A stretch of 34,897 nt of DNA from Patescibacteria group bacterium (GCA_038064095.1 JBBTTT010000059.1:1-34897), one strand, 5' to 3'; counted from the first letter of the stretch, positions 10,927-34,897 are shown. Made by a program: numbers and translations. Notes: generated by a model not told the origin, from the letters alone.

Positions 10927-10934
10927 AGAATAAA

Positions 10935-11008
10935 TGGTGGACCTAGGGAGAATCGAACTCCCGTCTCCACAATGCGAATGTGGCGTCGTACCACTAGACC
11001 ATAGGCCC
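10935..11008 (-). tRNA. tRNA-Ala(CGC), CCA encoded
   Basis: The cloverleaf folded by hand has acceptor GGGCCTA/TAGGTCC with G3:U70, anticodon arm CCACA-TTCGCAT-TGTGG and T arm GGGAG-TTCGATT-CTCCC. The 3' end is ACCA. Confidence 0.8.
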
Positions 11009-11013
11009 AACTG

Positions 11014-11084
11014 TCGGAGCGCCGAGAATCGAACTCGGGTCTCACCCTCCCGAAGGGTGTATACTACCACTATACTACGCTCCG
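11014..11084 (-). tRNA. tRNA-Pro(CGG), no encoded CCA
   Basis: Acceptor CGGAGCG/CGCTCCG, anticodon arm CACCC-TTCGGGA-GGGTG (G37), T arm CCGAG-TTCGATT-CTCGG and discriminator A, followed by CAG rather than CCA. Confidence 0.75.
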
Positions 11085-12572: not shown

Positions 12573-12574
12573 TA

Positions 12575-12646
12575 CGCTCTCGGAGGGATTCGAACCCCCA
12601 ACAACTGGTCCGAAGCCAGTCGTGATATCCATTTCACCACGAGAGC
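12575..12646 (-). tRNA. tRNA-Arg(TCG), no encoded CCA
   Basis: Acceptor GCTCTCG/CGAGAGC, D arm GTGA/TCAC, anticodon arm ACTGG-CTTCGGA-CCAGT and T arm GGGGG-TTCGAAT-CCCTC. The discriminator G is followed by TA and then the cca ATG. Confidence 0.75.
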
Positions 12647-12675
12647 AAGTTATTTTTAATTTTAGTGTATTTTCT

Positions 12676-12704
12676 TTGAAAAACAAGTCTAAAAATAGTA
12701 TATT
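12676..12704 (+). promoter_or_regulatory. Near-consensus promoter for tRNA-Arg(CCG)
   Basis: TTGAAA, a 17-nt spacer, then TATATT. The -10 hexamer ends at 12704, 30 nt upstream of the tRNA 5' end. Confidence 0.45.
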
Positions 12705-19364: not shown

Positions 19365-19401
19365 TCAACGATAATTTCGTAATTTAAGACAAAATAATCT
19401 T

Positions 19402-19761
19402 ATGATTTCCAATTTAGATTTTTATAAAAACAAACTGGAAGAAGAAAAAACGCGGCTGGAGCGCGAGCTGGAAACCGTGGGCCGCCGAAACCCCAAAAAT
19501 CCCGAGGATTGGGAGCCGACCGAAAAAGATTTGAATCTGCAAAGCTCGGATCCCAACGAAATGGCCGATAAATTTGAAGAACTTGACACGCGCGTGGGTA
19601 TTGAAACAACCCTGGAAGAAGAGCTGAACAGCATTAAGAAAGCCTTAAAACGGATAAAAGACGGCGGTTTTGGAAAATGCGAAATCTGCAAAAAACCGAT
19701 AGATGAAAATCGGCTTAAGGCCAATCCCGCGGCCGCGGCTTGCTTAAAACACGCCTTATAA
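19402..19761 (+). CDS. DksA/TraR-family C4 zinc-finger protein
   Basis: It has a coiled-coil N-terminal part and a C-terminal GKCEICKKPIDENRLKANPAAAACLKH (CxxC-17-C...H-type DksA finger). Confidence 0.8.
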   Translation: MISNLDFYKNKLEEEKTRLERELETVGRRNPKNPEDWEPTEKDLNLQSSDPNEMADKFEELDTRVGIETTLEEELNSIKKALKRIKDGGFGKCEICKKPIDENRLKANPAAAACLKHAL

Positions 19762-21312
19762 ATGTCCTCCGACTCCAATAAAGCCGTAAAACTGCATTCC
19801 GCGCAAGTGATCGGCCTTAAAGGTTCAATTATTGACGTAGAAGTTGACGCCTATCAAGGACAGCGCAAACTTTCCATCGTCGGCTTGCCGGATAAAGCGG
19901 TAGAAGAATCTTTGGAGCGCGTTTCCTCGGCCATTAAGAATACGGGTAAAAATTCTCCTCAAAAAAGAAGCCAACGGGTGACGATTTCTTTGGCGCCGGC
20001 TGATCTGAAAAAAGAAGGGCCGGTTTTTGATTTAGCCATCGCCTTAGGCTATCTCTTGGCTTCAAAACAGGCAAAATTCAACCCTCAAGGAAAAATTTTT
20101 TTAGGCGAACTTTCTTTGGACGGCGGCTTAAGGCCGATCAAAGGAGTTTTGCCTTTGACCGCAGAAGTAAAAAAAGCGGGGTTTAAAGAAATTTATCTGC
20201 CTAAAGGCAACGGCCGGGAAGCAGCGCTGATAGAAGGTGTGAATATTTATGAAGCAAGCAGTTTAAGCGACATCTTGCAGCACCTCAACGAAGAAGTGCT
20301 CATCCCAGCCTGCCCTAAAACAAAAATAATTCCAGCCCTTAACCAAGAAAACAAAGAAAATTTGAATTTTTCCGATATCCGGGGACAAGAAGCCGCCAAA
20401 AGAGGTTTGGAAATCGCCGCGGCCGGAGGACACAACCTGCTGATGGTTGGCCCGCCGGGAACCGGAAAAACCATGCTTGCCAAAGCTTTTCCCTCAATTC
20501 TTCCGCCTTTGACTTTTGAAGAAACATTGGAAGTAACCGCGATTCACAGCGTCGCCGGCAATCTTAAAAATCCTTATTTGGCCAGCCGGCCGTTCCGCAA
20601 TCCTCACCATACTTCTTCATACGTAGCTTTAGTCGGCGGAGGAGCCTGGCCCCGGCCCGGAGAAATCACCATGGCGCATCGCGGGGTCCTGTTTCTGGAC
20701 GAATTTCCGGAATTTGACCGCCGGGTAATAGAATCCCTGCGCCAGCCCATGGAAGAAGGCAGCATTGTCGTGGCGCGCGCCAAAGATACCATTCAGTTTC
20801 CCGCGCGTTTTACGCTTATTTGCGCGATGAATCCCTGCCCTTGCGGGAATTTGGGATCAAAAACAAAAATGTGCCTTTGCGGCCCGTCCGCGCTTTTCCG
20901 ATACAAAAGAAAAATCTCCGGACCCATTGCCGACCGCCTGGACCTTTGGCTGGATGTGCCGCAAATTGAACATGAAGAATTGGCGCCTCAAAAAACCAAA
21001 GGGGTACGTTCGGAAGAAATTATCAGGCGGGTGATCAAGGCCCGTGAAATTCAAAAAGAACGTTTTAAAAACAGAAAAATCATCGCTAACAGTGAAATGA
21101 CGGTAAAAGATTTGGAAGAATTGGCGCCGCTTTCCGCCAACTGCCGCAACACGTTAAATTTGGCCGCGAAGAATATGGACCTTTCGCCCCGCGCCTACCA
21201 TCGGGTAATAAAAATAGCCCGCACCATCGCGGACCTCGGCCAAGAAGAGAAAATTCAAGAAAACCACATTCTGGAAGCCATCCAATACCGGCCAAAACAA
21301 ACGGAAATATAA
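19762..21312 (+). CDS. comM: YifB/ComM family Mg-chelatase-like AAA+ ATPase
   Basis: It has an N-terminal Lon-like domain (IVGLPDKAVEESLERV), Walker A LLMVGPPGTGKTML, Walker B VLFLDEF and the Cys-rich insert CPCGNLGSKTKMCLC. The ATG directly abuts the upstream stop. Confidence 0.9.
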   Translation: MSSDSNKAVKLHSAQVIGLKGSIIDVEVDAYQGQRKLSIVGLPDKAVEESLERVSSAIKNTGKNSPQKRSQRVTISLAPADLKKEGPVFDLAIALGYLLASKQAKFNPQGKIFLGELSLDGGLRPIKGVLPLTAEVKKAGFKEIYLPKGNGREAALIEGVNIYEASSLSDILQHLNEEVLIPACPKTKIIPALNQENKENLNFSDIRGQEAAKRGLEIAAAGGHNLLMVGPPGTGKTMLAKAFPSILPPLTFEETLEVTAIHSVAGNLKNPYLASRPFRNPHHTSSYVALVGGGAWPRPGEITMAHRGVLFLDEFPEFDRRVIESLRQPMEEGSIVVARAKDTIQFPARFTLICAMNPCPCGNLGSKTKMCLCGPSALFRYKRKISGPIADRLDLWLDVPQIEHEELAPQKTKGVRSEEIIRRVIKAREIQKERFKNRKIIANSEMTVKDLEELAPLSANCRNTLNLAAKNMDLSPRAYHRVIKIARTIADLGQEEKIQENHILEAIQYRPKQTEI

Positions 21313-21352
21313 AATTAGAAGGTTTTAGAAGGTTGAACCTTCTGGAAAATAT

Positions 21353-22399
21353 TTAAAAAGGATTTCTCGGGCCGCCTCTGATTTCAAAATGAACGTGCGG
21401 GCCGCTGGATTTTCCGCTGGAGCCGACATAGCCGATAATTTGCCCTTGCGCCACGTGCCAGCCGCTAAAAACGATACTCTTGCTCAAATGAGAATATAAA
21501 GTCTGGGTGCCATTCGGATGCGCGATAACGATATAAGTGCCATAGCCGCCGTTCCAGCCTTGGCTTTTAGAAATAATCACGTCGCCGGAAGCTGACGCCA
21601 AAACCGGCGTACCCCAAGGCGCCGCCAAATCAACCGCGTTATAGCCATGAAGACCCTGGGAGCGGCGGCCGCCGTTGATCGGCCTTAAATAATATCCGGC
21701 GTATTCCTTGGAGCCGGCGCTGGGATATTGCTGAAAATCGTACTTCGGCAAATCATATTCGCCGTTTGGCACTACTATTTCCATTCCCGTTTCAAGCTCG
21801 TTTTCTCTCGTCAAACCGTTAAATTCCATAATTTCGTCAGCATCTGCCTTCAATTCTTTGGCGATTTTTAAAAACGTGTCTCCTTTTTTTACGGTGTATT
21901 TTACTCCGTTAACCGGCAAAATAATCAAAGTTTGACCAGGCTTTATCATATCGCCGCGCTTGATTTCATCGTTAGCCCAGATAATCGTGTTAACGCTGAC
22001 GTCAAAAAGCTTCGCGATTTGGGAAAGGGTGTCTTTTTCCCGAACCACGTAAATGCTTATCTGTTCTGATTTTTTCTGTTCTTCCAAAACGTCGGCTAAA
22101 CTGCCGAGAGGCCCGACGACCGGCGAAAGCGCGGCATTTTCAACGATGTTTATCTCTCCGCCGCCGATTCCGGCCAAAAGATTTTCGTTTGTCGGCGCGT
22201 TAAGCAGGGGAATGGTTTGAACATTTGCGGCGGCCGCGGGCTGAATTATTTCCTGTTTTTGAAAAATTTTATCCAAAAAAGAAAACCAGCCCGCCTGGGC
22301 GGATTGAACGTTAAAAAAACCGAACGATAAAACAATACCGGCAAAAATCAGCGGCGTTTTAACGGAATAAACAAAAAAACGCCCGGTTTTTAACAACAA
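21353..22399 (-). CDS. Secreted peptidoglycan hydrolase: LysM repeats plus M23 metallopeptidase domain
   Basis: There are two LysM-like repeats (YVVREKDTLSQIAKLFDVSVNTIIWAN and YTVKKGDTFLKIAKELKADADEIMEFN). The M23 motifs are HGYNAVDLAA and GSSGKSSGPHVHFEIR. The start is a TTG at the top of the ORF and is uncertain. Confidence 0.85.
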   Translation of the reverse strand: MLLKTGRFFVYSVKTPLIFAGIVLSFGFFNVQSAQAGWFSFLDKIFQKQEIIQPAAAANVQTIPLLNAPTNENLLAGIGGGEINIVENAALSPVVGPLGSLADVLEEQKKSEQISIYVVREKDTLSQIAKLFDVSVNTIIWANDEIKRGDMIKPGQTLIILPVNGVKYTVKKGDTFLKIAKELKADADEIMEFNGLTRENELETGMEIVVPNGEYDLPKYDFQQYPSAGSKEYAGYYLRPINGGRRSQGLHGYNAVDLAAPWGTPVLASASGDVIISKSQGWNGGYGTYIVIAHPNGTQTLYSHLSKSIVFSGWHVAQGQIIGYVGSSGKSSGPHVHFEIRGGPRNPF

Positions 22400-22646
22400 G
22401 TCAAAAATAACGAATATTTTTCTCTTTCTCTTAAGATAAGAGTTGGAGTTTAGAAAGTTGTTTAAAATAAATTAAAATCAAATGTTTTTCTAATCAACCA
22501 GCTATAATCTCTTCATAAAAGATAGAAAATAGCTATATTTTCGGCCTTTTCTTATCTATTTTCATATCCTAACCGATTTTAAAGAAAAAAACAATCCTCG
22601 GCTAAGAATTTGTGGATAACGGGAATAACTGCTATTGTTGCCAATA

Positions 22647-24656
22647 ATGCCGAAGAATACTCCAAAAAAAGAACCGTCAACGCCGATGAAAGGCGATTTT
22701 CCAACAGAACAGGTTGTCAAAGAACTGAACGAACGGCAAAAACAAGCGGTCTTGCACCAAGTTGGACCGCTTTTAATCTTAGCAGGCGCCGGCTCGGGAA
22801 AAACCAAAGTGATCGCCCATCGCATAGCCAACCTGATCAAAAACGGCGTCCAGCCGGAACAAATTCTGGCGATTACCTTTACCAACAAAGCGGCCGCTGA
22901 AATGCGCGAACGCATCATCAGGCTTCTCAACCCCAAAGGACGCCCCGAACTTCCTTTTATCAGCACCTTTCATTCTTTGGGCGTTTTTATTTTAAGAGAA
23001 AGCAGCAAGTCCTTGGGAATCAGCCGCAATTTTTCAATTTTTGACGAAGAAGATTCGCTAAGCCTTATCAAAGAATGCCTGAAAAAACTCTCTTTTGATC
23101 CGAAACAATTTCAACCCGCCAGAATTCAGGCGATAATTTCCAAAAACAAAAGCGAACTGGAAGAATTGAAAGAAGTCAGAGCAAAAGCGGACCGCTCGCC
23201 TTTTTTAAAAGCCGCGGCCGCGGTTTTTGAAAAATACGAAGAGGAGCTCGGCAAACACCGCGCGCTTGATTTTGACGACCTTATCGCCAAAACCGTTTCT
23301 CTTTTCAGCCGTTTCCCCGAAATTCTTAAGCAATACCAGGAAAAATGGCAATATATTCATATTGACGAATACCAGGACACCAATCACGCCCAGTATTGTT
23401 TAGCCAAACTCCTCGCCCGCACTGGCCAAAATATCTGCTGCGTGGGAGACGTTGATCAGGCGATTTACCAATGGCGGGGCGCGGATTTCCGCAATATCCT
23501 GAATTTTGAAAAAGACTGGCCTCAAGCCGCGGTTATCACGCTTGAAGAAAATTACCGCTCCACTCAAAACATTCTGGACGCCGCCAACGCGGTTATTTCC
23601 AAAAACCAGCTGCGAAAGCCGAAAAATTTGATTGGCCGCCAAGGCGCGGGTGAAAAAATAAAATTTTTTGCCGCGGCCAATGAACTGGAAGAAGCGGATT
23701 TTATCGCCCGCGCCAGCCAGAATCTGATCAGCCAAAAAATTCCGCCTCAAAAAATCGCCGTTCTTTTCCGCGCCAATTTTCAATCGCGCGTCCTGGAAGA
23801 AGCCTTTTCCCGCCGGCAAATTCCTTATCAGCTGATCGGCGTCAGATTTTATCAAAGAAAAGAAGTTAAAGACATTCTCGCTTATCTGCGCGCCGCCCTA
23901 AATCCTGAAAATCTTTTCAGCGTTAAAAGAATCATTAATGTTCCCGGCCGCGGAATCGGCAAAACATTGGCCGCTAAATATCTTGCTGCCGCGTCAGACG
24001 CGGCTGGCACAATAACAGCCCCGAAGCCCAATTTTAAGATTAAAGAAACCGGTCTTATTAAAAATTTTGAAAGCATTCTGGCTGGAATAAAAAAACAAGC
24101 GCTTGAAAATTCCGCTTCTCAAGCAATCCGCGCCTGCCTTGAAATAAGCGGCTATCGCGATTTTCTGAACGACAGCACCGAAGAAGGTTTGGCGCGGCTG
24201 GCTAACATTGAAGAACTGGCGAGTTCAGCTACAAAATATGACGGTTTCAAACCGCCCCAGGGAATAGAACGGCTTTTGGACGACGCCGCCTTGATGGCGG
24301 AACAGGACGCCATCAAAGACCGAAGCCAAAGCGTTAAATTGATGACGGTCCACAGCGCCAAAGGCCTGGAATTTGACGCGGTTTTCGTCAGCGGCCTGGA
24401 AGACGGCCTTTTTCCCCATTTTCTTTTGTCCGGCAAAGACCAGTTTCAAAAAGAAGAAGAACGCCGGCTTTTTTACGTGGCGCTGACCCGCGCCCGGGAA
24501 AATCTCTTTTTATCCTGCGCTTTTTTCCGCACCATCTTCGGCGCCAAGCAAGCGAATAAACCGTCTAAATTCTTGGAAGATATCCCAAAGGATCTGCTGG
24601 AATCGGTTAATCCAGAGGAAGAAACTTTGGAAAGCATTGATATTAAAGAATTATAA
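22647..24656 (+). CDS. pcrA: UvrD/PcrA superfamily-1 DNA helicase
   Basis: The motifs are LILAGAGSGKTKVIAHRIANLI (Walker A), ILAITFTNKAAAEMRERI, HIDEYQDTN, TVHSAKGLEFDAVFV and RRLFYVALTRAREN. The start is taken at the ATG at 22647. Confidence 0.9.
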   Translation: MPKNTPKKEPSTPMKGDFPTEQVVKELNERQKQAVLHQVGPLLILAGAGSGKTKVIAHRIANLIKNGVQPEQILAITFTNKAAAEMRERIIRLLNPKGRPELPFISTFHSLGVFILRESSKSLGISRNFSIFDEEDSLSLIKECLKKLSFDPKQFQPARIQAIISKNKSELEELKEVRAKADRSPFLKAAAAVFEKYEEELGKHRALDFDDLIAKTVSLFSRFPEILKQYQEKWQYIHIDEYQDTNHAQYCLAKLLARTGQNICCVGDVDQAIYQWRGADFRNILNFEKDWPQAAVITLEENYRSTQNILDAANAVISKNQLRKPKNLIGRQGAGEKIKFFAAANELEEADFIARASQNLISQKIPPQKIAVLFRANFQSRVLEEAFSRRQIPYQLIGVRFYQRKEVKDILAYLRAALNPENLFSVKRIINVPGRGIGKTLAAKYLAAASDAAGTITAPKPNFKIKETGLIKNFESILAGIKKQALENSASQAIRACLEISGYRDFLNDSTEEGLARLANIEELASSATKYDGFKPPQGIERLLDDAALMAEQDAIKDRSQSVKLMTVHSAKGLEFDAVFVSGLEDGLFPHFLLSGKDQFQKEEERRLFYVALTRARENLFLSCAFFRTIFGAKQANKPSKFLEDIPKDLLESVNPEEETLESIDIKEL

Positions 24657-24675
24657 AATTTTGCAATTCAATATA

Positions 24676-25512
24676 ATGACAAAATTAGGCCAGCATTTCT
24701 TAAAATCCGAATCCATTGCCCGAAAAATCGTTGAAACCGCCGGTCTCGCGCCGGACGATCTTGTTTTGGAAATCGGCCCGGGCAAGGGCATCCTGACCGT
24801 TGAACTTCTCAAACGCGCCAAAAAAGTAGTGGCCGTAGAAAAAGACGGTTATTTGGTTGAATTTCTGAAGAAAAAATTTTCCTCCGAGCGCCGCGCCTCT
24901 AAATTGAAAATTATTCACGGGGATGCCTTAAAACTTAATCCTGAAAAACTAATGGAACCAAAAACCAATAAAGCTGATTACAAAATCGTTGCCAATCTTC
25001 CTTATTACATCACTTCGCGTTTTCTGCGCTTATTTTTAACTTCAAAATATCCGCCCAAAGAAATGACTTTAATGGTCCAAAAAGAAGTTGCCCAAAGAAT
25101 CGTCAGCCGACCGCCGAAAACAAACCTGCTGGCTCTTTCCGTCCAAATTTTCGGCCGGCCGAAAATCGCTTTTAAAGTTTCAAAGCAATATTTTTCTCCG
25201 GCGCCGAAAGTGGATTCCGCGGTTATTGCCATTACCGATATCTCCCGCGATTTTTTCATCAAAAACAACATTGAAGAAAAAGAATTTTTTACGCTCGTTA
25301 AAGCCGGTTTTTCTCAAAAACGCAAATTTTTAATCAATAATCTCGCTAATCCCATAAGTGAGACCTATGTAAAATACATAGGTCTCACTTATGGGAAAAA
25401 AGAATGGCGGGAAACTTTTAAAAAATGCGGGATTCCGGAAAAATCCCGGCCGGAAAATCTTTCACTGGAAAACTGGGTTTGTCTTTATAAAAAAAACGGG
25501 GAATGTAAATAA
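24676..25512 (+). CDS. rsmA: 16S rRNA (adenine1518/1519-N6)-dimethyltransferase RsmA/KsgA
   Basis: The motifs are LGQHFL, VLEIGPGKGILT (SAM-binding), IVANLPYYITS and FSQKRKFLINNL. The start is taken at the ATG at 24676 (MTKLGQHFL). Confidence 0.9.
   Translation: MTKLGQHFLKSESIARKIVETAGLAPDDLVLEIGPGKGILTVELLKRAKKVVAVEKDGYLVEFLKKKFSSERRASKLKIIHGDALKLNPEKLMEPKTNKADYKIVANLPYYITSRFLRLFLTSKYPPKEMTLMVQKEVAQRIVSRPPKTNLLALSVQIFGRPKIAFKVSKQYFSPAPKVDSAVIAITDISRDFFIKNNIEEKEFFTLVKAGFSQKRKFLINNLANPISETYVKYIGLTYGKKEWRETFKKCGIPEKSRPENLSLENWVCLYKKNGECK
25351..25395. repeat. Perfect 45-bp palindrome (21-bp stem, 3-nt loop) embedded in frame in rsmA
   Basis: CCCATAAGTGAGACCTATGTA-aaa-TACATAGGTCTCACTTATGGG was read directly. 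It is 15 codons long and encodes PISETYVKYIGLTYG in the variable linker of the RsmA C-terminal domain. Confidence 0.9.
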
Positions 25513-25550: not shown

Positions 25551-26243
25551 TTATAAATTCAATTTCCACCCGACCCGCGTATTGCCGATCTGGTAATCCG
25601 TGGGATCGCTGTTTATGGAGAGATGACGGGTGTACGGCCGGCCCTCCGCGCTCTTGAAAACCAACTGGCCGGTGTAAGAATAGACGTTAAACCTATACTG
25701 GTTGAGCGGCAATTTAATGAACAAAACATTGATCCGTTCATAGACATTGCCGTTTTCCGTTCGGCCGGCGGTCTCAAACATAATTTCCTTCGTTTCTCCG
25801 TTTTCTCTAAAACGCAAAGTTACGCTCTGCATGAACGGCGACTCAAAATGAATCGCCTCCAAACCGTCCACTCTAAGCCAACGGGAAGAAAGTTTTTCCC
25901 ACACCCACTTATTTTTTCCTTTATCCCATATTTTTATCCAGCCCGGCGTGAAAACTTCTGCCTGACCATTATACGGGACCCAGATATTTCCTTCTCCCAA
26001 AACGAAAATCTCCGCGTCCTTGCTGACGCCGCGATTATCATTAATAAGCGCTCCCAATCGGGCGTCCTTATTCCGATGAACAAAACCTCCCGGCGAAGTT
26101 TCTAACGGCCCGTTATTTCTAAGATCGTTCGCCAGATTGGCAAGCACCGCCGGCCCGCCTTTTAACGCGAACGTGGAGCCGGAACAACCGCTTAAAACTA
26201 ATAAAACTAAAAAGAAAACTGGTATTACCGTTATTCTTTTCAT
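25551..26243 (-). CDS. Hypothetical lipoprotein
   Basis: It has a signal peptide with the lipobox LVLSGC|SG and no recognisable family. It is divergent from the T4SS-like operon. Confidence 0.7.
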   Translation of the reverse strand: MKRITVIPVFFLVLLVLSGCSGSTFALKGGPAVLANLANDLRNNGPLETSPGGFVHRNKDARLGALINDNRGVSKDAEIFVLGEGNIWVPYNGQAEVFTPGWIKIWDKGKNKWVWEKLSSRWLRVDGLEAIHFESPFMQSVTLRFRENGETKEIMFETAGRTENGNVYERINVLFIKLPLNQYRFNVYSYTGQLVFKSAEGRPYTRHLSINSDPTDYQIGNTRVGWKLNL

Positions 26244-26421
26244 TTTTCATCCTCCTTTTTATTTTTATTTATTTCTCAAAAAACAATCCGCTTAATTTTT
26301 TATATTATATCAAATAATACAAAATTGTCAATGATGTGGATAAAAAAATAGAAAGAATAGGAAAAAAAGTGTTAAAATAAAAATACAGAAACTGACCGCA
26401 AATTTTAATTTTGCCGGTATT

Positions 26422-27384
26422 TTGAACTATCAAATATATTTGCCAAGCAAAAAATTGATCTATTTAATCGCCGGCATAGGCGGAGCGGCGTTATTGCTGT
26501 TTAACTGGCCGATTATTAAATCAGATTCAAGATTCAATCCGCTGGCCGGCGGACAAGATTCAAAAAATCAAAAACTGACGCAAGAGGCGCAACAGGAAGC
26601 GCGAAAAGACAGCGATCAGGATGGCTTAAAAGATTGGGAAGAAACGCTCTGGAAAACCGATCCGCAAAATCCGGACAGCGACAATGACGGAACGCCGGAT
26701 GGCGAAGAAATAAAACAAAACCGCGATCCCAGCAAACCCGGCCCGGACGACAAACTACCCGACTTGGGAGTCCGACTCCCAAGTGAGATTGCGGGCCCAA
26801 ATCCCCAAGATTACGGCGCGACAAATTTAACCGGCCAAATCGCCAAAACTCTCGGTTTTCAGGCTTTCAGCGGCGCGAAAAATAAAGATTTCACCGTGCC
26901 GGCCGATTCGGAACTGCTAGACGCCGCCACGGAAAACACCATAACCGGCTTCACCGCTTCATTTTATCCGCGAATTTCCGAAAACGAACTGATAATCGTT
27001 GAAAACAACGAAAAAAATATCACGGAATATCTCCGGCTGTTCAGCGAGATAATGGCGAAAAATCTCCTGCCAACCCAATCGCAGGAAGAAGTTTTTCTCC
27101 AAGCCGTCCAAGATAAAAATTTTTCCGGCAGCGAAATTTGGATAAATTATTTTCAAGAAACAACAAAAAAACTGAAAACCGCGCCAACGCCGAAAATCGC
27201 CGCGGCTAATCATCAACGAATCATTGAACTGCTGCTCGCTAAAATAAAAGTGCTGGAAAATCTGAAAGAAATTGAGCGCGATCCCCTGAAAACGATGATT
27301 GCCTTCCAGGAACACGAAAAAATCAACGAAGAAATCATGCAAACAATGAAAAATTTTGAAAATTTGTTCAATGCCAGCCAGTAA
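26422..27384 (+). CDS. Membrane-anchored protein with thrombospondin type-3-like Ca-binding repeats
   Basis: It has an N-terminal TM anchor (LIYLIAGIGGAALLLFNW), then DSDQDGLKDWEE...TDPQNPDSDNDGTPDGEE (DxDxDG repeats) and a helical C-terminal domain. The start is a TTG and is uncertain. It is the first gene of the co-directional operon. Confidence 0.6.
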   Translation: MNYQIYLPSKKLIYLIAGIGGAALLLFNWPIIKSDSRFNPLAGGQDSKNQKLTQEAQQEARKDSDQDGLKDWEETLWKTDPQNPDSDNDGTPDGEEIKQNRDPSKPGPDDKLPDLGVRLPSEIAGPNPQDYGATNLTGQIAKTLGFQAFSGAKNKDFTVPADSELLDAATENTITGFTASFYPRISENELIIVENNEKNITEYLRLFSEIMAKNLLPTQSQEEVFLQAVQDKNFSGSEIWINYFQETTKKLKTAPTPKIAAANHQRIIELLLAKIKVLENLKEIERDPLKTMIAFQEHEKINEEIMQTMKNFENLFNASQ

Positions 27385-27400
27385 AAGCGTAAAACGCAAA

Positions 27401-30400
27401 ATGCAAAATAATAATCCAAAACTAAAAACACGAAAAACGATTTTGGGAATCCTGCTGCTGCTGATTTTGTTTTCATCGGTTTCTTTTTATCCGACCAAAG
27501 CGGAAGCTGGTTTGCCTGTCATTGACTGGGTAGCAATTGGAGCCGCAATCGCCGAATTTGCCAAAGATGCGTCGGAAAAAACTATTGATATTTTAACAGC
27601 AGTGTTCCGTAAAATGATTCTGGATATAATCGTGAATGAAATAATCGCCTGGATTTCCGGCGAAGGCACTTCGGCTTTTGACACCGGTGATTGGGGGCAA
27701 TTCTTTGACGAAGCGGCCCAGCAAGCCGGCGGCAAAGCATTGGAAGAAATAACCGGCGCCGGAGTGATGACCCAGCTTTGCGACGCTGATTGGGCCGGAC
27801 AAGTCAGAATCAACCTTCAGCCTCTTAAAAAATTCGGACAAAAAGCCCGCTGCACCTTGCGAGACATCGGCGTGAACTACGATAATTTTATAGAAAATTT
27901 TGAAAACGGCGGCTGGGCCGCCTGGATTAAAATTTCCGAGTCTCAAAATAATCCTTACGGCTATTTTCTGTCCGCAGTGAATGAAAAACTGGCGAAAGAA
28001 ACGCAAAAAAAATTAGGCCTGGAAAAAGAACTGACCGCTTCCGGCGGATTTTTAAGCGATGAGGTTTGCATTAAAGAAGTCTGTGAAGCAGAAAAAAATA
28101 ACGGAATATGTCCTGTTGGTTTTGATGATAAAAACGGAGTTTGTGAAATGACTATATTCTATACATCCAATGAAAATAGAAAAGAAGCGGATTCAGGCAA
28201 GGGCTGTAAATGCGTAAAAACGGAAACCCGCACCCCGGGCAAGATTATGGCGGACTCTTTAAGCAGAACCATTTTCAAGGATTATGATTGGCTGCAGAAA
28301 AATTCGGAATGGTATAATTACGCGGTGGCGATCGGCAACGCGGTTGTCAACCGGCTGACCAAAGAGGGAGTCAGGGCCATAAAAGCCGCGGTCAGGCCCG
28401 GCCAGCCCACTTCTGTTTCCATGGGTATAACCAGTAAAGCGGATTACACGGCGCCGACAACCTTAATTAAAATTCTCAATCCCTGGCGCGCGAAATTGAC
28501 AAGCAGTGAGCCCGGCGACACCTACTATACTCTTGACGGCTCCAAGCCCCGCCTCCGCGCTTCGCCGAAATATGAAGGCGGAGAACTGACCATCGTCAGC
28601 TCCACGGCGCTGAACGCGGCGCCGGCCCAATTAAAATGGCTAAGCGTGGACGATAATTTTAACGCCGAAGATGTCCGCAGTTTGCCGGCTTTCCTGCGCA
28701 GTCCTTTTGATTACAACAAATTAACCGAATATTTAGACAATCAAAACGTCAATGTTCCCGACAGCTTGAAAGAAGCGCTGATGAAATTCTTTGAACAGGA
28801 AGAAAACGGGGAACAAGCCGCGAAAATCAGCAAAGAAACCTTTATCCCCAAGGATATCCGCAATGCTTTGAAAGATTATCTGGGAATAGAAGATTTAAGA
28901 ATTGAACTTGGCAAAATTCCTCTTCTTTCTTCGGAAAGGCGGCTGGCCTTAGATAATATTTTAGCGACTTACGACAATTTAAATCCCGCGGACGACGGGA
29001 AACTGACTGATCTCATCGCGGTTCTGGCTGAAATAAAAAGCGCGGGAATCAGCGCGTTTGCTGACGTTGAAAACAACGCCGTAGACATCAGAAACCGGCG
29101 GGATAATCTGAAATCAACGCTAACCACTCTTAATGGCGTGATCGCCGCGCTTGAAACGTGTTCCAAAGCTCAAAAAGCGGCCACCCCGCAGGAAGGAGAA
29201 ACCGCCGAAGATTTCCAGTTCAGAATCGTCGCTGAATTCAATACTTGCCAAAATCAAGCTCAAACCGGCCTCGGCAATCTCACTCTGGCTAATCTCTCGT
29301 CCGCTTTGGCGAGCGATCCGCTCTTCAACGAACTTAAAGAAAAAACAGATAAAATAATTCTGGAAAATTCTTTGTTCGCGGTTGATCCGACGCCCGGCAA
29401 TTGGACCGGCCCTTCAGCCGCGCTCGCGCCAGCTGACCCTGAACATGTGGTAATTCTTTCGTTTGATCCTTCAAAAACCGGAAATTACAAATCCGGAGCG
29501 ATTTTTTACAAACAAGCGTCTTGGCTAACAGGGGATGGACGAGGTCGCGCTCTTACCCTTTTTTCTTCTCAAAAAAACGGTTTTTATTATAAACAAGCTC
29601 TTGATACGCCGCCGAACATCGGCACGCAAATCTGGTATGGGGCGATTGATGCAAACAACAATTGGACAAAAGAAGAAGCAGCTCCGGAATTTAGCATGTC
29701 AGACGCGCCTTCTCTCGCCAAACTTCCAGCGATCACCGATTTTGTCAAGCCGATCGCGGACATCAGAACCCCTATAGTAAAAGACGGCGAATATTTTATT
29801 TTAAACCCCTTGCTGTCGATTGATAATGACCGCACTCCGCGAATTACCGGCTATGAATGGAATTTTATTGACAATGGCACGACAACTTCGCAATACGAAT
29901 GGGAATCTTTTGATCTAAACCGCGACGGAATTTTTGAAACCCAACAATGCCTTTATAATTTTTTAGCAGGCGCAGAACAAGTTATAACCGGTCCTGGCTC
30001 TCAACAAAATTATTATAAAGTGGCTGGCAGCAACCAAGAAGTCTATAGCTTAAGCTTAAGAAAAGAATATTATGACGCGGCTCACAGCTCGCCTTATCCG
30101 GCTCCAAATACAACGCTGTTAAACTTAAACCTGCAGCCGACCTGCGTAAAATTAGCGGAAGCATCGCAAACTAAATATTATTTAGAAACTTACGAAAACA
30201 ACCAACGAAAATCTTCTGAAGAAATAACTCAAACCGTTTACAATCAAAAATTGAATTCATTAAGTACAAATGAAACAAAAGATAAATTTGACGTCAACAT
30301 CGCTTCCAATTCTTACAAAAGGATTTATATTGCCACTAATCTAATCAACACCGGCGATTATGAAGACATGAAAATTGTTGACGCCAACAACGGCATTATC

Positions 30401-30502
30401 AAAGTAAAATTCACGGCCGACAGCGGGCCGATTACCATCGGCTTAAGAGTGACCGACGATGAAGGCCTTACCGCCGTTGATTCCGTTGTGATAAATCCTT
30501 AA
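27401..30502 (+). CDS. Large (about 1,033 aa) secreted multidomain adhesin-like protein
   Basis: Its signal peptide ends ...FYPTKAEA|GLPVIDW. It contains a Cys-rich module (CIKEVCEAEKNNGICPVGFDDKNGVCE...GKGCKCV). It also has a YYTLDGSKPRLRASPKYEGGELTI motif (chitobiase/FN3-associated type) and a PKD/Ig-like C-terminal end (ITIGLRVTDDEGLTAVDSVVINP). The ATG at 27371 is an alternative start. Confidence 0.7.
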   Translation: MQNNNPKLKTRKTILGILLLLILFSSVSFYPTKAEAGLPVIDWVAIGAAIAEFAKDASEKTIDILTAVFRKMILDIIVNEIIAWISGEGTSAFDTGDWGQFFDEAAQQAGGKALEEITGAGVMTQLCDADWAGQVRINLQPLKKFGQKARCTLRDIGVNYDNFIENFENGGWAAWIKISESQNNPYGYFLSAVNEKLAKETQKKLGLEKELTASGGFLSDEVCIKEVCEAEKNNGICPVGFDDKNGVCEMTIFYTSNENRKEADSGKGCKCVKTETRTPGKIMADSLSRTIFKDYDWLQKNSEWYNYAVAIGNAVVNRLTKEGVRAIKAAVRPGQPTSVSMGITSKADYTAPTTLIKILNPWRAKLTSSEPGDTYYTLDGSKPRLRASPKYEGGELTIVSSTALNAAPAQLKWLSVDDNFNAEDVRSLPAFLRSPFDYNKLTEYLDNQNVNVPDSLKEALMKFFEQEENGEQAAKISKETFIPKDIRNALKDYLGIEDLRIELGKIPLLSSERRLALDNILATYDNLNPADDGKLTDLIAVLAEIKSAGISAFADVENNAVDIRNRRDNLKSTLTTLNGVIAALETCSKAQKAATPQEGETAEDFQFRIVAEFNTCQNQAQTGLGNLTLANLSSALASDPLFNELKEKTDKIILENSLFAVDPTPGNWTGPSAALAPADPEHVVILSFDPSKTGNYKSGAIFYKQASWLTGDGRGRALTLFSSQKNGFYYKQALDTPPNIGTQIWYGAIDANNNWTKEEAAPEFSMSDAPSLAKLPAITDFVKPIADIRTPIVKDGEYFILNPLLSIDNDRTPRITGYEWNFIDNGTTTSQYEWESFDLNRDGIFETQQCLYNFLAGAEQVITGPGSQQNYYKVAGSNQEVYSLSLRKEYYDAAHSSPYPAPNTTLLNLNLQPTCVKLAEASQTKYYLETYENNQRKSSEEITQTVYNQKLNSLSTNETKDKFDVNIASNSYKRIYIATNLINTGDYEDMKIVDANNGIIKVKFTADSGPITIGLRVTDDEGLTAVDSVVINP

Positions 30503-30505
30503 TTT

Positions 30506-32317
30506 ATGGAAAATCCCAAACAATACAAAAAATATATATTGATCGCGCTTGTTGCCTTGACGATCGCTTTGGGGCCGTTTACGGCGAAAACAGCGTTGGC
30601 TTGGCTTCCGAGTCTTTTCCCTTCTATTGAAGATTTAGCCGCTACTTTTGGCAATCTAATCCTTTGGCTGGTTTCCTGGGGCTTATGGCTGACCGCGAAT
30701 CTTTTTGAATATACTCTTAAGCTGACTTTGAAAAACAGCACTTTTGCCAATCTTAGCGTTATTAATCTCGGCTGGAGCATTGTCCGGGACGTGGTTAATC
30801 TCTTTTTTATTTTCATTCTTCTTTACATCGCCATCGGCGCGATTCTTCGCTTGGCCGGCCATGATGCCAAAAAACTCCTGGTTAATCTGATTTTAGCGGC
30901 TCTTTTGATCAACTTCAGCTTAGTGATAACCAAAGTTATCATTGACGCTTCCAATATCCTGGCTTTGGAATTTTACGCGAAAATTAGCGGAGAGAATAAA
31001 AGCGTGACTCAAACTCTGATGAACGGCTTGCACTTAACGTCTATTTATAACAAGGAAGCACTAAAAACTCGGGACGCGCCAGACCCAGAAAAAGCTGGCT
31101 TTGCCAATATTATTTTGGGCACCTTGGGCGGCTCGGCTCTGATTTTGGTGACGGCCTTTGTTTTTTTAGCGGCCACTTTTCTTTTTATCGCCCGAACAAT
31201 CGTGCTTTGGTTTTTAATGATTCTTTCGCCGCTGGCTTTCGGAGCGATGATTTTACCCCAAACCAAAAAACACGCTGACCGCTGGTGGCAAGAACTGACC
31301 TGCCAGTGCCTGCTGGCGCCGGCTTTTATGTTTATGATTTATTTGGTTGTGATGATAATTAAAAATAGTGATTTTAATAGTGCAATCAGCGGTATTACCG
31401 GCCAAGAAACAACCGATAATTTTGCCGCGGCCTTTACGAGCGGCGTAGAAAGCAGTTTAGGCGTTATCCTTAATTTCGTTCTTTTAATCGGCTTGATGAT
31501 CGGCTCCTTGATTGTTTCCAAAAATCTGGCTTGCGCCGGCGGCGCGGAAGCGATGAGAGCCGCTAATTGGACCAAAGGAAAAGTCCAAGGATACGCCAAA
31601 AGCTACGCGAAGAGAGGCGCCGGCGCCGCAGCTGAAGGAGCGATGAAAGGATTAAAAGCGGAAGAAGAAAAAGGAGGTTTTAGAGGGGGTTTTGCCCGCA
31701 CTTTCAAAGCAATCCCGGGCGTGGGCCGCGGTTTGGCCGCGCTTTCCGCGGGCCGGGAAGAAGAACTTGCCGCCAAACGGAAACAATACGCGCAGCAATA
31801 CAAGGGCTACAGCGAAGCCGGCTTGCAAACAATGCTGGAAACGCCGGCTATTGCCCCGGAAAAAAGAAAAGTTATTGAAAGCATCCAAAAAGAAAGGCAA
31901 ATGAAAAAAGAAGCCGAGGTCGGAGAAAAAGCGGCTTACAAAGAAATCGTCGGCGGCGAAGAAACAATAAAAGATAAAGTAACAGGCGAACCAATAAAAA
32001 TAACAACAACCGGCAAACTTGGCGAAATAGACGACCAATTAAAGAAAATAACGGGAGGAAAAAGCAAAGACGCCAGCAGTTATCTGGATAATCTTGAAGC
32101 GCAACTAGAAAACCTAAGAGGAAGCGCTTCGCCCGACGCCTCAACAAAACGGGAAGGAATTATTTTCCAGCGGGGAAAAATTAACAAATTAATGAAAGAA
32201 AAAGAAAAACTGGAAGCAAGAAAAGAAAAACTAGAAGAAAAACAGCAAAGTCAAACAAAAGAAAAGAAACTTGAAGAAAGATTGGGAAAAATTGAAACAG
32301 AAAAACCTAAAACTTGA
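30506..32317 (+). CDS. Polytopic membrane protein, VirB6/TrbL-like, with a long K/E-rich coiled-coil tail
   Basis: About 8-9 hydrophobic helices span residues 1-350 (for example FANIILGTLGGSALILVTAFVFLAATFLFIARTIVLWFLMILSPLAFGAMIL). A roughly 250-aa charged C-terminus follows. The topology and its position next to VirB3/VirB4 homologues fit VirB6/TrbL. Confidence 0.65.
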   Translation: MENPKQYKKYILIALVALTIALGPFTAKTALAWLPSLFPSIEDLAATFGNLILWLVSWGLWLTANLFEYTLKLTLKNSTFANLSVINLGWSIVRDVVNLFFIFILLYIAIGAILRLAGHDAKKLLVNLILAALLINFSLVITKVIIDASNILALEFYAKISGENKSVTQTLMNGLHLTSIYNKEALKTRDAPDPEKAGFANIILGTLGGSALILVTAFVFLAATFLFIARTIVLWFLMILSPLAFGAMILPQTKKHADRWWQELTCQCLLAPAFMFMIYLVVMIIKNSDFNSAISGITGQETTDNFAAAFTSGVESSLGVILNFVLLIGLMIGSLIVSKNLACAGGAEAMRAANWTKGKVQGYAKSYAKRGAGAAAEGAMKGLKAEEEKGGFRGGFARTFKAIPGVGRGLAALSAGREEELAAKRKQYAQQYKGYSEAGLQTMLETPAIAPEKRKVIESIQKERQMKKEAEVGEKAAYKEIVGGEETIKDKVTGEPIKITTTGKLGEIDDQLKKITGGKSKDASSYLDNLEAQLENLRGSASPDASTKREGIIFQRGKINKLMKEKEKLEARKEKLEEKQQSQTKEKKLEERLGKIETEKPKT

Positions 32318-32322
32318 ATTTT

Positions 32323-32916
32323 ATGAAATCTTACACCAGAGAAGAATTAGAAGAAAAATACAAACATCTTCCGCCAGAAATAGAGGAAGCGATTTTCAAC
32401 GTTGGTCTGGATAAAACCTTGGAAGAAATCGGAAAGAAATACAAACTCCGGATAGACCAACTTGGAATTCTGGCCAATGAAACCCGCCTGGTGATGCTGG
32501 GCCTGACTCATCCCAAAGATTTTATCAATAATCTGGCGGAACGGCTGGAATTAAACGAAGAAACCGCCAAAAACATCGCCCAGGAAATAAATCAACGGAT
32601 TTTTCATGAAATCAGGGAAGAATTGAAAAAAATGCACAGCATCAACGAAGCCGCTGATTCAAAATTAAAAACGCTGAACCAAAAGTTTAAAATTCAAGAT
32701 TTAAAGAAGAAATTAATTGAACCGACGCGAGTAATTGAACCGCCGCCGACTGAACCGGCGGAAAAACCGAAAATTCCGGCCACGCCGTTTGAATACAAAC
32801 TAAAAAACGAAGAAGCGGTCCGGGCGCCGCTTGAAGAAATTAAAATTCCAGCCGAACAAAAACCGCCGGATAAAAAATATTCCGCGGGAGATCCGTACCG
32901 CGAACCATTGGAATAA
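32323..32916 (+). CDS. Hypothetical protein: helical N-domain plus Pro/Lys/Glu-rich tail ending in DPYREPLE
   Basis: The ORF is tightly packed in the operon. The start is taken at the ATG at 32323, 6 nt after the upstream stop. No recognised family. Confidence 0.55.
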   Translation: MKSYTREELEEKYKHLPPEIEEAIFNVGLDKTLEEIGKKYKLRIDQLGILANETRLVMLGLTHPKDFINNLAERLELNEETAKNIAQEINQRIFHEIREELKKMHSINEAADSKLKTLNQKFKIQDLKKKLIEPTRVIEPPPTEPAEKPKIPATPFEYKLKNEEAVRAPLEEIKIPAEQKPPDKKYSAGDPYREPLE

Positions 32917-32925
32917 TTTAAGCAT

Positions 32926-33342
32926 ATGCAGTATCAAATTCCGCAATTTACCGAGGTTGAAGACAAAATTTTCGGACCGCTGACTTTCAAGCAGTTCATT
33001 TATGTTTTGGGCGGCGCGGCCTCCGGTTTTATCTTTTGGAGCCTTCTGCCCAAGTGGCTGGCTGTTCTTTTGGGCGTTCCGGTCGGCGGTTTTTTTCTGG
33101 GGCTGGCCTTTTTAAAAATAAACGGCCAGCCCCTGCTTAAAATCCTGACCAGCGCCATAAGTTTTTCCGCCGGTAATCGGCTTTATATTTGGAAAAAAAC
33201 AGAAAAAAAACCGTTAGAAAAGAAAGAAAAAGAAGAGGGGGCGCCCGCGGAAAAAGAAACCCTGGCCCTGCCCAAGCTGACGGAAAGCAAATTAAAAGAA
33301 TTGGCGTGGAGTCTGGACATCCGCCAAAAATTAAGACGCTAA
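32926..33342 (+). CDS. PrgI-family (VirB3-like) small membrane protein
   Basis: The N-terminus YQIPQFTEVEDKIFGPLTFKQFIYVLGG followed by two TM helices is the PrgI-family signature. It lies immediately upstream of the VirB4 homologue, the conserved VirB3-VirB4 order. Confidence 0.7.
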   Translation: MQYQIPQFTEVEDKIFGPLTFKQFIYVLGGAASGFIFWSLLPKWLAVLLGVPVGGFFLGLAFLKINGQPLLKILTSAISFSAGNRLYIWKKTEKKPLEKKEKEEGAPAEKETLALPKLTESKLKELAWSLDIRQKLRR

Positions 33343-33348
33343 GAAATT

Positions 33349-33984
33349 ATGATCTCAAAACCCAGCCAGCAATTAATCCCCATTTCGGAAATCCGCGAAG
33401 ACGTCGTCATTCTGAAAGACGGCTCTTTAAGAATGATTTTAATGGCCTCTTCCATCAATTTTTCCCTTAAGTCCCAAAATGAACAAAAGGCGATTATTGA
33501 TCAATACCAGTATTTCCTGAATACTTTGGATTTTTCCGTCCAATTTTTTGTTCATTCCGCTTCTTTTAATATCAATCCCTATCTCGCGATGATAAAAGAA
33601 AAAGAAAAAGCGCAAACCAACGAGCTTTTAAAAATCCAAACGCGGGAATACGCGGAATTCGTCAAGAATTTCATTGAAACGAACAAAATAATGTCAAAAA
33701 CTTTTTATGCCGCCGTTCCTTACGCGCCCGCGGCCGCCCCCACGGCCGGCGGCTTGCTGGAAAGCTTCAAAAGTTTAATCGGTCAAAAAGAAAAAATTTC
33801 GGAATCGGAAGAAAAATTTTTGGAATATAAAAACCAGCTTTGGCAAAGAATGGACGCGGTCGCTGGAGGATTGGCGCGCTGCGGCGTGCATACCGCGCCG
33901 CTGAAAACCGAGGAATTGATTGAATTATTCTATCAGCTTTACAACCCCGGCGAAACCGAGGAAGGAATAGCGGCAAAAACATAA
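33349..33984 (+). CDS. VirB4-family N-terminal segment (stand-alone ORF or the 5' part of a frameshifted virB4)
   Basis: LIPISEIREDVVILKDGSLRMILMASSINFSLKSQNEQKAIIDQYQYFLNTLDFSVQFFVHS matches the extreme N-terminus of Gram-positive VirB4 homologues as I remember them (Tn916 Orf16/ConE type: IP..I.DG.I....INF.L.S..EQ..I...F..FLN). The ORF stops 2 nt before the next ATG, which is in another frame. Confidence 0.6.
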   Translation: MISKPSQQLIPISEIREDVVILKDGSLRMILMASSINFSLKSQNEQKAIIDQYQYFLNTLDFSVQFFVHSASFNINPYLAMIKEKEKAQTNELLKIQTREYAEFVKNFIETNKIMSKTFYAAVPYAPAAAPTAGGLLESFKSLIGQKEKISESEEKFLEYKNQLWQRMDAVAGGLARCGVHTAPLKTEELIELFYQLYNPGETEEGIAAKT

Positions 33985-33986
33985 TT

Positions 33987-34897
33987 ATGGCCTTATTTGA
34001 TTTTTTCAAACTAAAAAAGAAAGAAAAAGAAGAAGAAAAAATTCTGCCGGTTTTTCCCGCGGAAATTTACGAAGCCGGCGCTCTGGATTTGAAAGACGTC
34101 ATCGCGCCTTCGGCTTTTGAAATAAATTCAAATTTCATAAAAATCGGCAATAAAATCGCCAAAACCATTTTCGTCTATTCCTACCCCCGCTATCTTTCGC
34201 AGGAATGGTTTTCGCCGATTATAAACCTGGACCAAATTTTCAATGTTTCCGTTTTTATCCATCCCATCAACACCGAAACGGTCCTGAAACAAATGCAGAA
34301 AAAAGTGGCGGAAGTCCAGTCGCAAATCAGCATACGCGAAGAAAAAGGGCTGGTGCGCGACCCGATTTTGGACACCTCCCTGATGGACCTGGAAAATCTG
34401 CGCGACAAACTCCAGCAAGCCCAGGAAAAACTTTTCAGCGTGGGAATTTACCTGACCATTTACGGCGACACGCTTCAGGAAACAAACCAAAATGAAGCGG
34501 AAATCCGCCATATTTTAAACGCCAAACTGATCCAGACCAAACCCGCCCTCTTCCAGCAGCAAGAAGGATTTGACAGCGTTTTACCGTACGTCACCGATAA
34601 ACTTCAAATCAATAACCGCTTTAATTCAGAACCCCTGTCTTCAATTTTTCCTTTTGTTTCTTTTGACCTTACTTCGGATAGAGGCATTCTTTACGGCGTG
34701 AACCGCCACAACAACTCGCTGATTCTTTTTGACCGCTTCAGTTTGGAAAATTACAATTCGGTTATTTTCGCCAAAGCCGGCGCCGGCAAATCCTACACCA
34801 CCAAATTGGAAATTCTTCGCTCTTTGATGTTCGGCATAGACGTGATGATTATTGACCCGGAAAGAGAATACGAATATCTGGCGGAAACCGTGGACGG
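33987..34897 (+). CDS. virB4: VirB4/TrbE-family T4SS ATPase, 3' end beyond the window
   Basis: I translated this by hand because the open-ended frame is absent from the ORF track. It reads MALFDFF...DLKDVIAPSAFEINSNFIKIGNKIAKTIFVYSYPRYLSQEWFSPIINL...VSVFIHPI...GILYGVNRHNNSLILFDRFSLENYNSVIFAKAGAGKSYTTKLEILRSLMFGIDVMIIDPEREY. It includes a Walker A motif (GAGKSYT) and the IDPEREY motif. Confidence 0.85.
   Translation, partial: MALFDFFKLKKKEKEEEKILPVFPAEIYEAGALDLKDVIAPSAFEINSNFIKIGNKIAKTIFVYSYPRYLSQEWFSPIINLDQIFNVSVFIHPINTETVLKQMQKKVAEVQSQISIREEKGLVRDPILDTSLMDLENLRDKLQQAQEKLFSVGIYLTIYGDTLQETNQNEAEIRHILNAKLIQTKPALFQQQEGFDSVLPYVTDKLQINNRFNSEPLSSIFPFVSFDLTSDRGILYGVNRHNNSLILFDRFSLENYNSVIFAKAGAGKSYTTKLEILRSLMFGIDVMIIDPEREYEYLAETVD

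Follow-up and report, generated by a model that had tools for sequence, protein, structure and literature searches.

Type IV secretion systems (T4SSs) were reported in 2417 of 3035 Patescibacteria genomes in the main text of a recent survey (Quinonero-Coronel 2025, Microb Genom, PMC12102498), where the Patescibacteria VirB4 ATPases form a monophyletic clade nested in MPF-FATA, TrsD, PrgI/VirB3, VirB6 and VirB2-like pilins are encoded near virB4, and a split into separate TrsD and VirB4 proteins is described. According to the same text, relaxases occur in only 103 of the genomes, homologues of the type IV coupling protein (T4CP) lie mostly far from virB4, the Paceibacteria virB4 genes have dnaA, dnaN, rnpA, ksgA and rpmH as neighbours, M23/LysM proteins are among the VirB1-like matches associated with them, and no PrgB-type adhesin was found. 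In S. epibionticum, the T4SS encoded by SEML1_0006-0019 is essential for epibiotic growth; it includes pilins, has no recognisable coupling protein or relaxase, and a non-conjugative role has been proposed for it (Wang 2023, Cell, PMC10633639). It has been speculated that a pilus might act as a conduit through which the cell takes up material from its host (2025 FEMS review, PMC12857230), and a 2026 preprint on a cultured member describes tubular structures seen by cryo-electron microscopy, possibly T4SS pili, reports uptake of host RNA, and finds VirB4 and polynucleotide phosphorylase (PNPase) to be monophyletic in the phylum. Here we analysed a 34,897-nt stretch of the Patescibacteria contig JBBTTT010000059.1 (hereafter the window), whose last part, 26422-34897, carries T4SS-like genes.

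We are highly confident that this locus belongs to the Patescibacteria-clade T4SS, as an MPF-FATA derivative that lost its DNA-processing module, and that it is not a conjugative element. The reading of such loci as relaxase-less chromosomal T4SSs is correct and has already been published (Wang 2023; Quinonero-Coronel 2025; 2025 FEMS review).

An eleven-gene chromosomal operon

The downstream continuation of the contig was read as L001, which showed 2 mismatches to the window in an 11.5 kb overlap, and sequence was scanned in all of the resulting ~45 kb, taking open reading frames (ORFs) of ~90 amino acids or more, leaving out shadows of longer ORFs, and searching families against Pfam gathering scores and NCBIfam cut-offs. 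Seven co-directional ORFs run from 26422 to the window end with intergenic gaps of 16, 3, 5, 9, 6 and 2 nt, as a first-pass annotation of the window had described them. Since four more genes follow on L001, with gaps of 2, 4, 28, 9 and 4 nt downstream of gene 06, the stretch from 26422 to 34897 covers the first two-thirds, counted from the 5' end, of a chromosomal operon of 11 genes and ~12.6 kb that is cut by the window end (Table 1). Thus, the term "minimal", which had been applied to seven genes, does not fit a system of 11 genes that includes a VirB2-like pilin.

The VirB3/PrgI, VirB4 and VirB6 assignments that the same annotation had put forward all reached curated thresholds of hidden Markov models (HMMs). 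Full-length gene 07 scored 375.8 bits with NF045971 conju_CD1110 (cut-off 325) and 88.8 bits with P-loop_TraG; its Walker A motif is AKAGAGKS, the portion inside the window matches positions 184-463 of VirB4 CD1110, and the CD1110 and Mycoplasma-ICE Mbov_0397 models score best, giving the VirB4 of this locus an MPF-FATA affinity. Gene 05 matched PrgI at 43.5 bits (gathering score 27), with a hydrophobic hairpin at residues 35-63, and may anchor VirB4 at the membrane by analogy with other T4SSs. Gene 03 reached 28.0 bits with TrbL/VirB6 (gathering score 25.9); six to seven transmembrane (TM) helices appear in its TM profile, TrbL_3 matches are precomputed for its orthologues, and alignment with R388 TrwI by hhalign gave E=5e-4 and a probability of 30% over the conserved Trp region. 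Its C-terminal tail of ~260 amino acids (residues ~340-603), described earlier as a coiled coil, is indeed hydrophilic and Lys/Glu-rich and matches coiled-coil chains. Gene 06 showed NCBIfam matches to VirB4_plasma (positions 103-230), conju_CD1110 (2-120) and TrsD/TraD (20-123), with E-values of 1e-7 to 7e-6 and scores under the whole-protein cut-offs, together with a precomputed PF26593 TraC-like match.

The pilin call comes from PF18895, which gene 10 matched at 35.2 bits against a threshold of 26.6. A signal peptide and two TM helices are followed by a Cys-rich C-terminal extension of ~90 amino acids with ~10 cysteines, and the protein weakly resembles the Mycoplasma ICE Mbov_0395 family; comparison with R388 TrwL by hhalign gave no similarity, leaving PF18895 as the evidence for the VirB2-like call. 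ORFs matched to the pilin vary widely in length among species, from about 100 to 590 amino acids.

We then compared relatives by a VirB4-alignment scan of one genome per GTDB species, followed by family HMMs for the gene order of 87 loci. At least 594 related VirB4 loci were present, and the best 80 of them shared 67-84% VirB4 identity and were all from Patescibacteria where the record names a lineage (Kaiser-, Taylor-, Niyogi-, Terry-, Wolfe-, Campbell-, Nomura- and Zambryskibacteria, and unnamed Paceibacteria/Patescibacteria). Many third-party annotation records among these relatives bear a generic "Saccharibacteria" label; the source organism itself is near Ca. Niyogibacteria, a member of the Paceibacteria/Parcubacteria and not of the Saccharibacteria. 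Among loci of different Paceibacteria species the commonest order, kept in dozens of these species, was 01-02-03-04-05-06-07-08-09-10-11, and a second frequent variant had genes 10 and 11 swapped and two TSP3-type genes. Around the gene 02 homologues of three other genomes (Ca. Niyogibacteria, a Parcubacteria bacterium and Ca. Pacebacteria), the genes likewise stand in the 01-11 order and are of matching size. Gene 05 had an orthologue immediately 5' of the TrsD gene in 85 of the 87 loci. The first-pass annotation had counted a VirB4 homologue in two ORFs; both are present, and because TrsD and VirB4 are separate in 86 of the 87 loci, this arrangement is, on the evidence of gene order, a conserved natural split (TrsD + VirB4) and no disruption. 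VirB4 was the slowest-evolving component (94, 84, 72 and 71% identity in four relatives), and genes 01, 02, 03, 04 and the pilin gene were the fastest (62-70% in the nearest relative, down to 31-46%).

Consistently with the earlier proposal of a chromosomal, non-conjugative machine, the sequence past the window end held the four remaining envelope genes, then jag/khpB, yidC and rnpA on the opposite strand, and then dnaA and dnaN, with dnaA beginning ~1.9 kb past the last operon gene. The upstream 26 kb comprise housekeeping genes in the family scan of ORFs: thyX, subunits of pyruvate:ferredoxin oxidoreductase, a thiolase, a beta-eliminating lyase, the CCA-adding enzyme and a SIMPL protein; a hydrolase, an XerC/D-type recombinase, rpsO, a NYN protein, PNPase and a DksA/TraR zinc-finger protein; and comM, a LysM-M23 peptidase, pcrA and rsmA, besides three further ORFs without a family. 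No relaxase, VirD4/TcpA coupling protein or mobile-element integrase was present among the ORFs scanned over the window and L001, in which the sole P-loop_TraG/AAA_10 match was VirB4 itself. The statement that 26422-34897 holds no relaxase, VirD4, integrase or hydrolase was likewise confirmed; the M23/LysM peptidase lies 4 kb upstream, and the sole recombinase, a tyrosine recombinase of XerC/D type, 11 kb upstream. Searches for direct repeats bracketing the block returned only chance-level 20-27-mers at ~70% identity, no tRNA lies next to it (there are four, all at least 13 kb off, the nearest at 13.6 kb), and Rfam families around it amounted to nothing beyond these four tRNAs. The block and the housekeeping genes had closely similar composition (GC content 0.442 vs 0.439; GC content at third codon positions 0.475 vs 0.459; codon-use r=0.955). 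Comparison of neighbourhoods, which had been suggested as a check on whether the genes travel together, showed the block kept as a unit across many Paceibacteria, including one, L006, where its flanks are unrelated (UbiA on one side, PaaX on the other). Because of this conservation and of its housekeeping-like composition, the block is a vertically inherited chromosomal machine and not an integrative and conjugative element (ICE).

Table 1 Genes of the operon and neighbouring features; positions refer to the window unless L001 is named.
Feature	Position	Strand	Evidence or remark
Gene 01, membrane-anchored TSP3-repeat protein, 320 amino acids	26422-27384	+	TSP3_bac, TM profile
Gene 02, secreted protein, 1,033 amino acids	27401-30502	+	signal peptide; CHB_HEX_C/Fn3_assoc at residues 365-407
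Gene 03, extended VirB6/TrbL-like polytopic membrane protein, 603 amino acids	30506-32317	+	PF04610
Gene 04, cytoplasmic protein, 197 amino acids	32323-32916	+	no TM helix
Gene 05, PrgI/VirB3-like small membrane protein, 138 amino acids	32926-33342	+	PF12666
Gene 06, TrsD-like, VirB4 N-terminal domain as its own ORF, 211 amino acids	33349-33984	+	NCBIfam
Gene 07, VirB4 ATPase, 303+ amino acids in the window (cut by its end), 606 in full	33987-34897; full length L001:10639-12459	+	
Gene 08, small 2-TM protein, 123 amino acids	on L001, after VirB4		
Gene 09, secreted beta-rich Ig-like protein, 331 amino acids	on L001		weak Ig-like matches, E=0.007
Gene 10, VirB2-like pilin, 220 amino acids	L001:13869-14531		PF18895
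Gene 11, TM-anchored TolB-like propeller, 390 amino acids	on L001		family profile vs TolB beta-propellers, E=3e-6
LysM-LysM-M23 peptidoglycan peptidase	21353-22399	-	Pfam M23 96 bits, LysM 83 bits
Divergent lipoprotein	25551-26243	-	lipobox LSGC
Divergent intergenic region with promoter-like sites on both strands	26244-26421		consensus matches only

Accessory genes 01, 02 and 04

Gene 01 had been called a TSP3-repeat membrane protein, a call that stands in its repeat pattern and narrowly misses the curated score: TSP3_bac reached 24.8 bits, just short of the gathering score of 25, and D63, D65, D67, G68, D85, D87, D89 and D93 of the DxDxDG repeats were invariant or nearly so in 24 orthologues. 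With a single N-terminal TM segment at residues 13-31, the protein is predicted to have two calcium-binding repeats of the TSP3 type and, outside the cell, a helical C-terminal domain. The TSP3 gene heads the block in four of the relatives' loci that we compared (L005, from Niyogibacteria, L006, L007 and L090). The operon of L005, conserved in other respects, is interrupted by a gene for a 121-residue PF05635 "23S rRNA intervening sequence protein", which separates the TSP3 gene from gene 02 (L005:9562-9927).

Gene 02 begins with an N-terminal domain of ~335 amino acids, marked by four conserved cysteines and the motifs NGGW, SESQNNPYG, GFLSDKVC and WETRTPGK. A profile of this domain retrieved 5013 clusters at E<=1e-3 and 3849 at E<=1e-10 from 1.84 billion representatives, and found no relative in Pfam, NCBIfam or PDB sequences. 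Past the N-domain, members of the family have one or two CHB_HEX_C domains and then a variable C-terminus, often PKD-like at its end; that of gene 02 is lineage-variable and ends in a PKD-like domain, and the C-terminal modules of its relatives include CHB_HEX_C, PKD, Big_1 and, in one distant case, pretoxin-HINT. Position is far more constant, with orthologues directly 5' of virB6 in every locus looked up and three distant members likewise flanked by virB6 on one side and by rsmA or the TSP3 gene on the other. Among the extracellular proteins, gene 02 is the likeliest candidate for a host-binding component.

Two other identities for gene 02 were tried and rejected. The motif GLPVID after the signal peptide had prompted the idea of a VirB5/TrbJ protein; it is unconserved in the family, the N-domain profile had a probability of 0.1% against R388 TrwJ (hhalign) and no PDB-sequence match, and DUF4141 was matched weakly (E=0.0014) by 1 of 72 distant relatives. 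A VirB1-type hydrolase fared no better, with an hhalign probability of 0.3% against the R388 VirB1-like protein and no Pfam hydrolase domain.

An alternative, longer start of gene 02 at a TTG (27356) is possible; the ATG at 27401 is supported as the true start by a 38-nt repeat of 89% identity that matches the start region of the pilin gene (27391-27428 and L001:13859-13896). The repeat spans the upstream AAAACGCAAA and the first codons (MQNNNPKLK vs MQNNNEKLK), and hints at shared translational control or past gene conversion.

In the gene 04 protein, a disordered Pro/Lys/Glu linker connects an N-terminal domain of six helices (residues 1-105) with a C-terminal DPYREP peptide. It matched nothing in Pfam or NCBIfam, and its 85 homologues, all from Patescibacteria, include none with an assigned name. 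Of 67 orthologues, 58 carry DPYREP at the extreme C-terminus, and the motif is absent from all other gene families of these loci. A folded domain joined through a disordered linker to an invariant terminal peptide would suit an adaptor or docking subunit, the likely role of the gene 04 product.

Structure prediction with AlphaFold and Foldseek, which had been proposed for the proteins without a role, gave a confident model for only one of these two. AlphaFold2 modelled gene 04 confidently (per-residue confidence, pLDDT, >90 over residues 1-100), with no match in the PDB (best Foldseek E=0.7; nothing from the profile against PDB sequences), whereas the model of gene 02 residues 1-450, built from a 21-sequence alignment, was poor (pLDDT 54, global score pTM 0.27) and usable for the CHB_HEX_C domain alone. 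Tentatively, and with more doubt than conviction, we propose that the gene 02 N-domain could be an unrecognised universal extracellular T4SS subunit, e.g. a pilus-tip or pilus-base adaptor whose variable C-terminal modules set host specificity, and that the DPYREP peptide of gene 04 could be a docking signal for the cytoplasmic assembly of VirB4 and VirB6.

Working model and alternative readings

In the working model, the VirB4 ATPase (TrsD plus ATPase body) would dock at the membrane via PrgI/VirB3 and the extended VirB6 channel protein, and would power the extraction of the VirB2-like pilin and its polymerisation into a pilus or tube across the thin envelope. The extracellular part would be made up of the TSP3 protein, the large secreted product of gene 02, the Ig-like protein and the TolB-like propeller, and the machine would serve host-cell contact and macromolecule transfer, with no conjugation. 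We infer pilus formation, the role in host contact and the accessory roles from homology and the literature.

Several points weigh against reading the locus as a non-conjugative machine of this kind. The working model is based on homology and on the cited studies of other Patescibacteria; the match of gene 03 to VirB6 exceeds its threshold by 2 bits only; a VirB8-like subunit was not identified in the operon; and the roles of genes 01, 02, 04, 08, 09 and 11 are drawn from topology, weak fold hints and position only. Moreover, the sequence covered amounts to ~45 kb of a 109 kb contig from a Hainich groundwater assembly, and there may be a T4CP elsewhere in the genome or an unrecognised relaxase; VirD4-like genes are common elsewhere in Patescibacteria genomes, according to the main text of PMC12102498.

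It is highly improbable that the locus is an ICE, intact or decayed, with its relaxase, coupling protein and integrase beyond the sequence seen. Such an origin would agree with the descent of the core genes from monoderm conjugation systems (VirB4 falls in the CD1110 and Mycoplasma-ICE families), with the tyrosine recombinase upstream, with the adjoining pcrA, a helicase that some Gram-positive ICEs use, and with the minority of Patescibacteria that bear relaxases (main text of PMC12102498). However, the block has housekeeping genes on both sides, the origin region being the downstream one, lacks flanking repeats and a tRNA target, shares the composition of its host, and sits at the same place in many species, diverging in step with them; the recombinase has XerC/D architecture and lies among rpsO, pnp and a hydrolase gene. 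A different question is what passes through a vertically inherited machine, and in which direction. The conserved synteny with comM, pcrA, the DksA/TraR zinc-finger gene and PNPase would suit a DNA- or RNA-uptake machine, either a ComB/Ced-like importer or a pilus conduit drawing host nucleic acids into a nucleotide-auxotrophic cell, as would the adjacency of T4SS genes to comF, recG and radA in class ABY1 and the existence of T4CP-less systems (both in the main text of PMC12102498), and the 2026 preprint's reports of RNA taken up from the host, of pili that may belong to a T4SS and of monophyly for VirB4 and PNPase. We nevertheless regard uptake as unlikely, if worth keeping in mind: the synteny may be no more than a by-product of housekeeping genes lying together close to the origin, the operon yielded no component that binds nucleic acids, and the preprint itself leaves the uptake mechanism unsettled. 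In S. epibionticum, competence needs comEC and type IV pili, and deletion of comEC abolishes transformation and not viability, whereas the T4SS is essential (PMC12857230).

Export of protein effectors or toxins into or onto a host bacterium, in the manner of the T4CP-less Ptl and Brucella VirB systems or of the bacteria-killing T4SS of Xanthomonas, appears distinctly unlikely. In the operon and its flanks, the family scans picked out no gene for an effector or an immunity protein, and the features of genes 02 and 04 that might speak for cargo can be read otherwise. One distant relative of gene 02 has a pretoxin-HINT domain, yet gene 02 carries a Sec signal peptide and thus has no need of a T4SS channel; the conserved C-terminal peptide of gene 04 could be a recognition signal, yet the gene is universal and fixed in position, which fits a structural subunit better. 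Wang 2023 offers protein export as an alternative to DNA transfer (PMC10633639), and effector systems without a T4CP are known (main text of PMC12102498). Beyond uptake and export, adhesion would be a further possible role. The reading as a chromosomal, non-conjugative Patescibacteria T4SS is the one we retain.

Neighbouring features and relation to known systems

Upstream of the operon, the order over 16373-25512 is PNPase, a 304-residue protein of unknown family, the DksA/TraR zinc-finger protein, comM, LysM-M23, pcrA and rsmA, then the T4SS; the order from PNPase to rsmA recurs in the relatives' loci L005, L007 and L089 as far as each stretch reaches. The LysM-M23 peptidase, outside the operon, keeps its place between comM and pcrA, ahead of rsmA and the T4SS, in these same three loci and may stand in for VirB1, a putative functional link. 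The divergent lipoprotein, which had been mentioned as a possible accessory, proved to be only loosely linked: orthologues were present in 3 loci only, the gene adjoins the block in L005, is two genes off in L006 and is absent from L007, an inconsistent linkage that rules it out as a constant component of the block.

In the intergenic region between the lipoprotein gene and gene 01, plus-strand promoter-like sites lie at 26349-26378 (L001 3001-3030) and 26411-26440 (L001 3063-3092). On the minus strand, 26331-26304 holds a perfect, TG-extended sigma-70 consensus, TTGACA-16 nt-TATAAT, which faces the lipoprotein gene and is the only 12/12 match within 15.6 kb. A perfect palindrome lies within rsmA (24676-25512) at 25350-25396, where 22 nt (TCCCATAAGTGAGACCTATGTA) are followed by AAA and a further 22 nt (TACATAGGTCTCACTTATGGGA). 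It marks the site of an insertion of 11-18 amino acids that is missing from the L005 and L007 orthologues, has no second copy in the window, and may represent a palindromic element inserted in frame, comparable to the Rickettsia palindromic elements. Further upstream, three of the four tRNA genes fall inside listed ORFs (10935-11084 and 12574-12647), those for Ala and Pro in the ORF at 9916-11070 and that for Arg-TCG in the ORF at 11115-12686; the true starts of these two ORFs are probably further in. The Pfam domain of the CCA-adding enzyme starts at residue 61 of its ORF.

The locus adds no new principle and is a typical copy of a known system, since the absent DNA-transfer module, the origin-proximal site and the pilin have all been published. 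What is new here is small, namely the gene 02 N-terminal domain and the DPYREP protein of gene 04 as conserved, uncharacterised components, both of which merit structural and genetic study with regard to host recognition. The class as a whole matters because no other T4SS is known to be indispensable for the growth of the cell that carries it; present in about 80% of Patescibacteria genomes, it is the foremost candidate for the means by which these reduced cells draw on their hosts. Within it, the present locus can serve as a reference operon for the Paceibacteria, clean and complete, with its 11 genes defined one by one.

Among more distant systems, Bordetella Ptl and Brucella VirB resemble this locus in having no VirD4-type coupling protein and in being non-conjugative; they are diderm MPF-T systems with VirB7, VirB9, VirB10, VirB11 and a known protein cargo, none of which was found here. 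The Gram-positive MPF-FATA systems compared (pCF10 prgH-prgL, the trs genes of pGO1/pSK41, C. difficile CTn2 CD1110 and Mycoplasma ICE Mbov_0395-0397) share with it a TrsD-like ORF, as in pGO1, PrgI, a VirB6 analogue and the lack of outer-membrane core proteins. In contrast to these conjugation systems, no relaxase, T4CP, replication or integration functions were found here in the ~45 kb read and no identifiable VirB8-like or VirB1-like gene lies inside the operon, whereas a VirB2-like pilin is present and the locus is chromosomally fixed and vertically inherited. Compared with S. epibionticum, which has a 6-gene pilin array, there is one pilin gene with a Cys-rich extension. The TSP3, chitobiase and TolB domains of genes 01, 02 and 11 are not mentioned in the main text of PMC12102498, nor are the DPYREP and Ig-like proteins named in its sections consulted here. 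In all other respects compared, the locus is the same as the Patescibacteria-clade T4SS: an MPF-FATA VirB4, TrsD as an ORF of its own, genes for PrgI/VirB3, VirB6 and a VirB2-like pilin close to virB4, neither relaxase nor T4CP in the neighbourhood, an M23/LysM candidate hydrolase in the vicinity, and dnaA, dnaN, rnpA and ksgA (rsmA) as adjoining genes.

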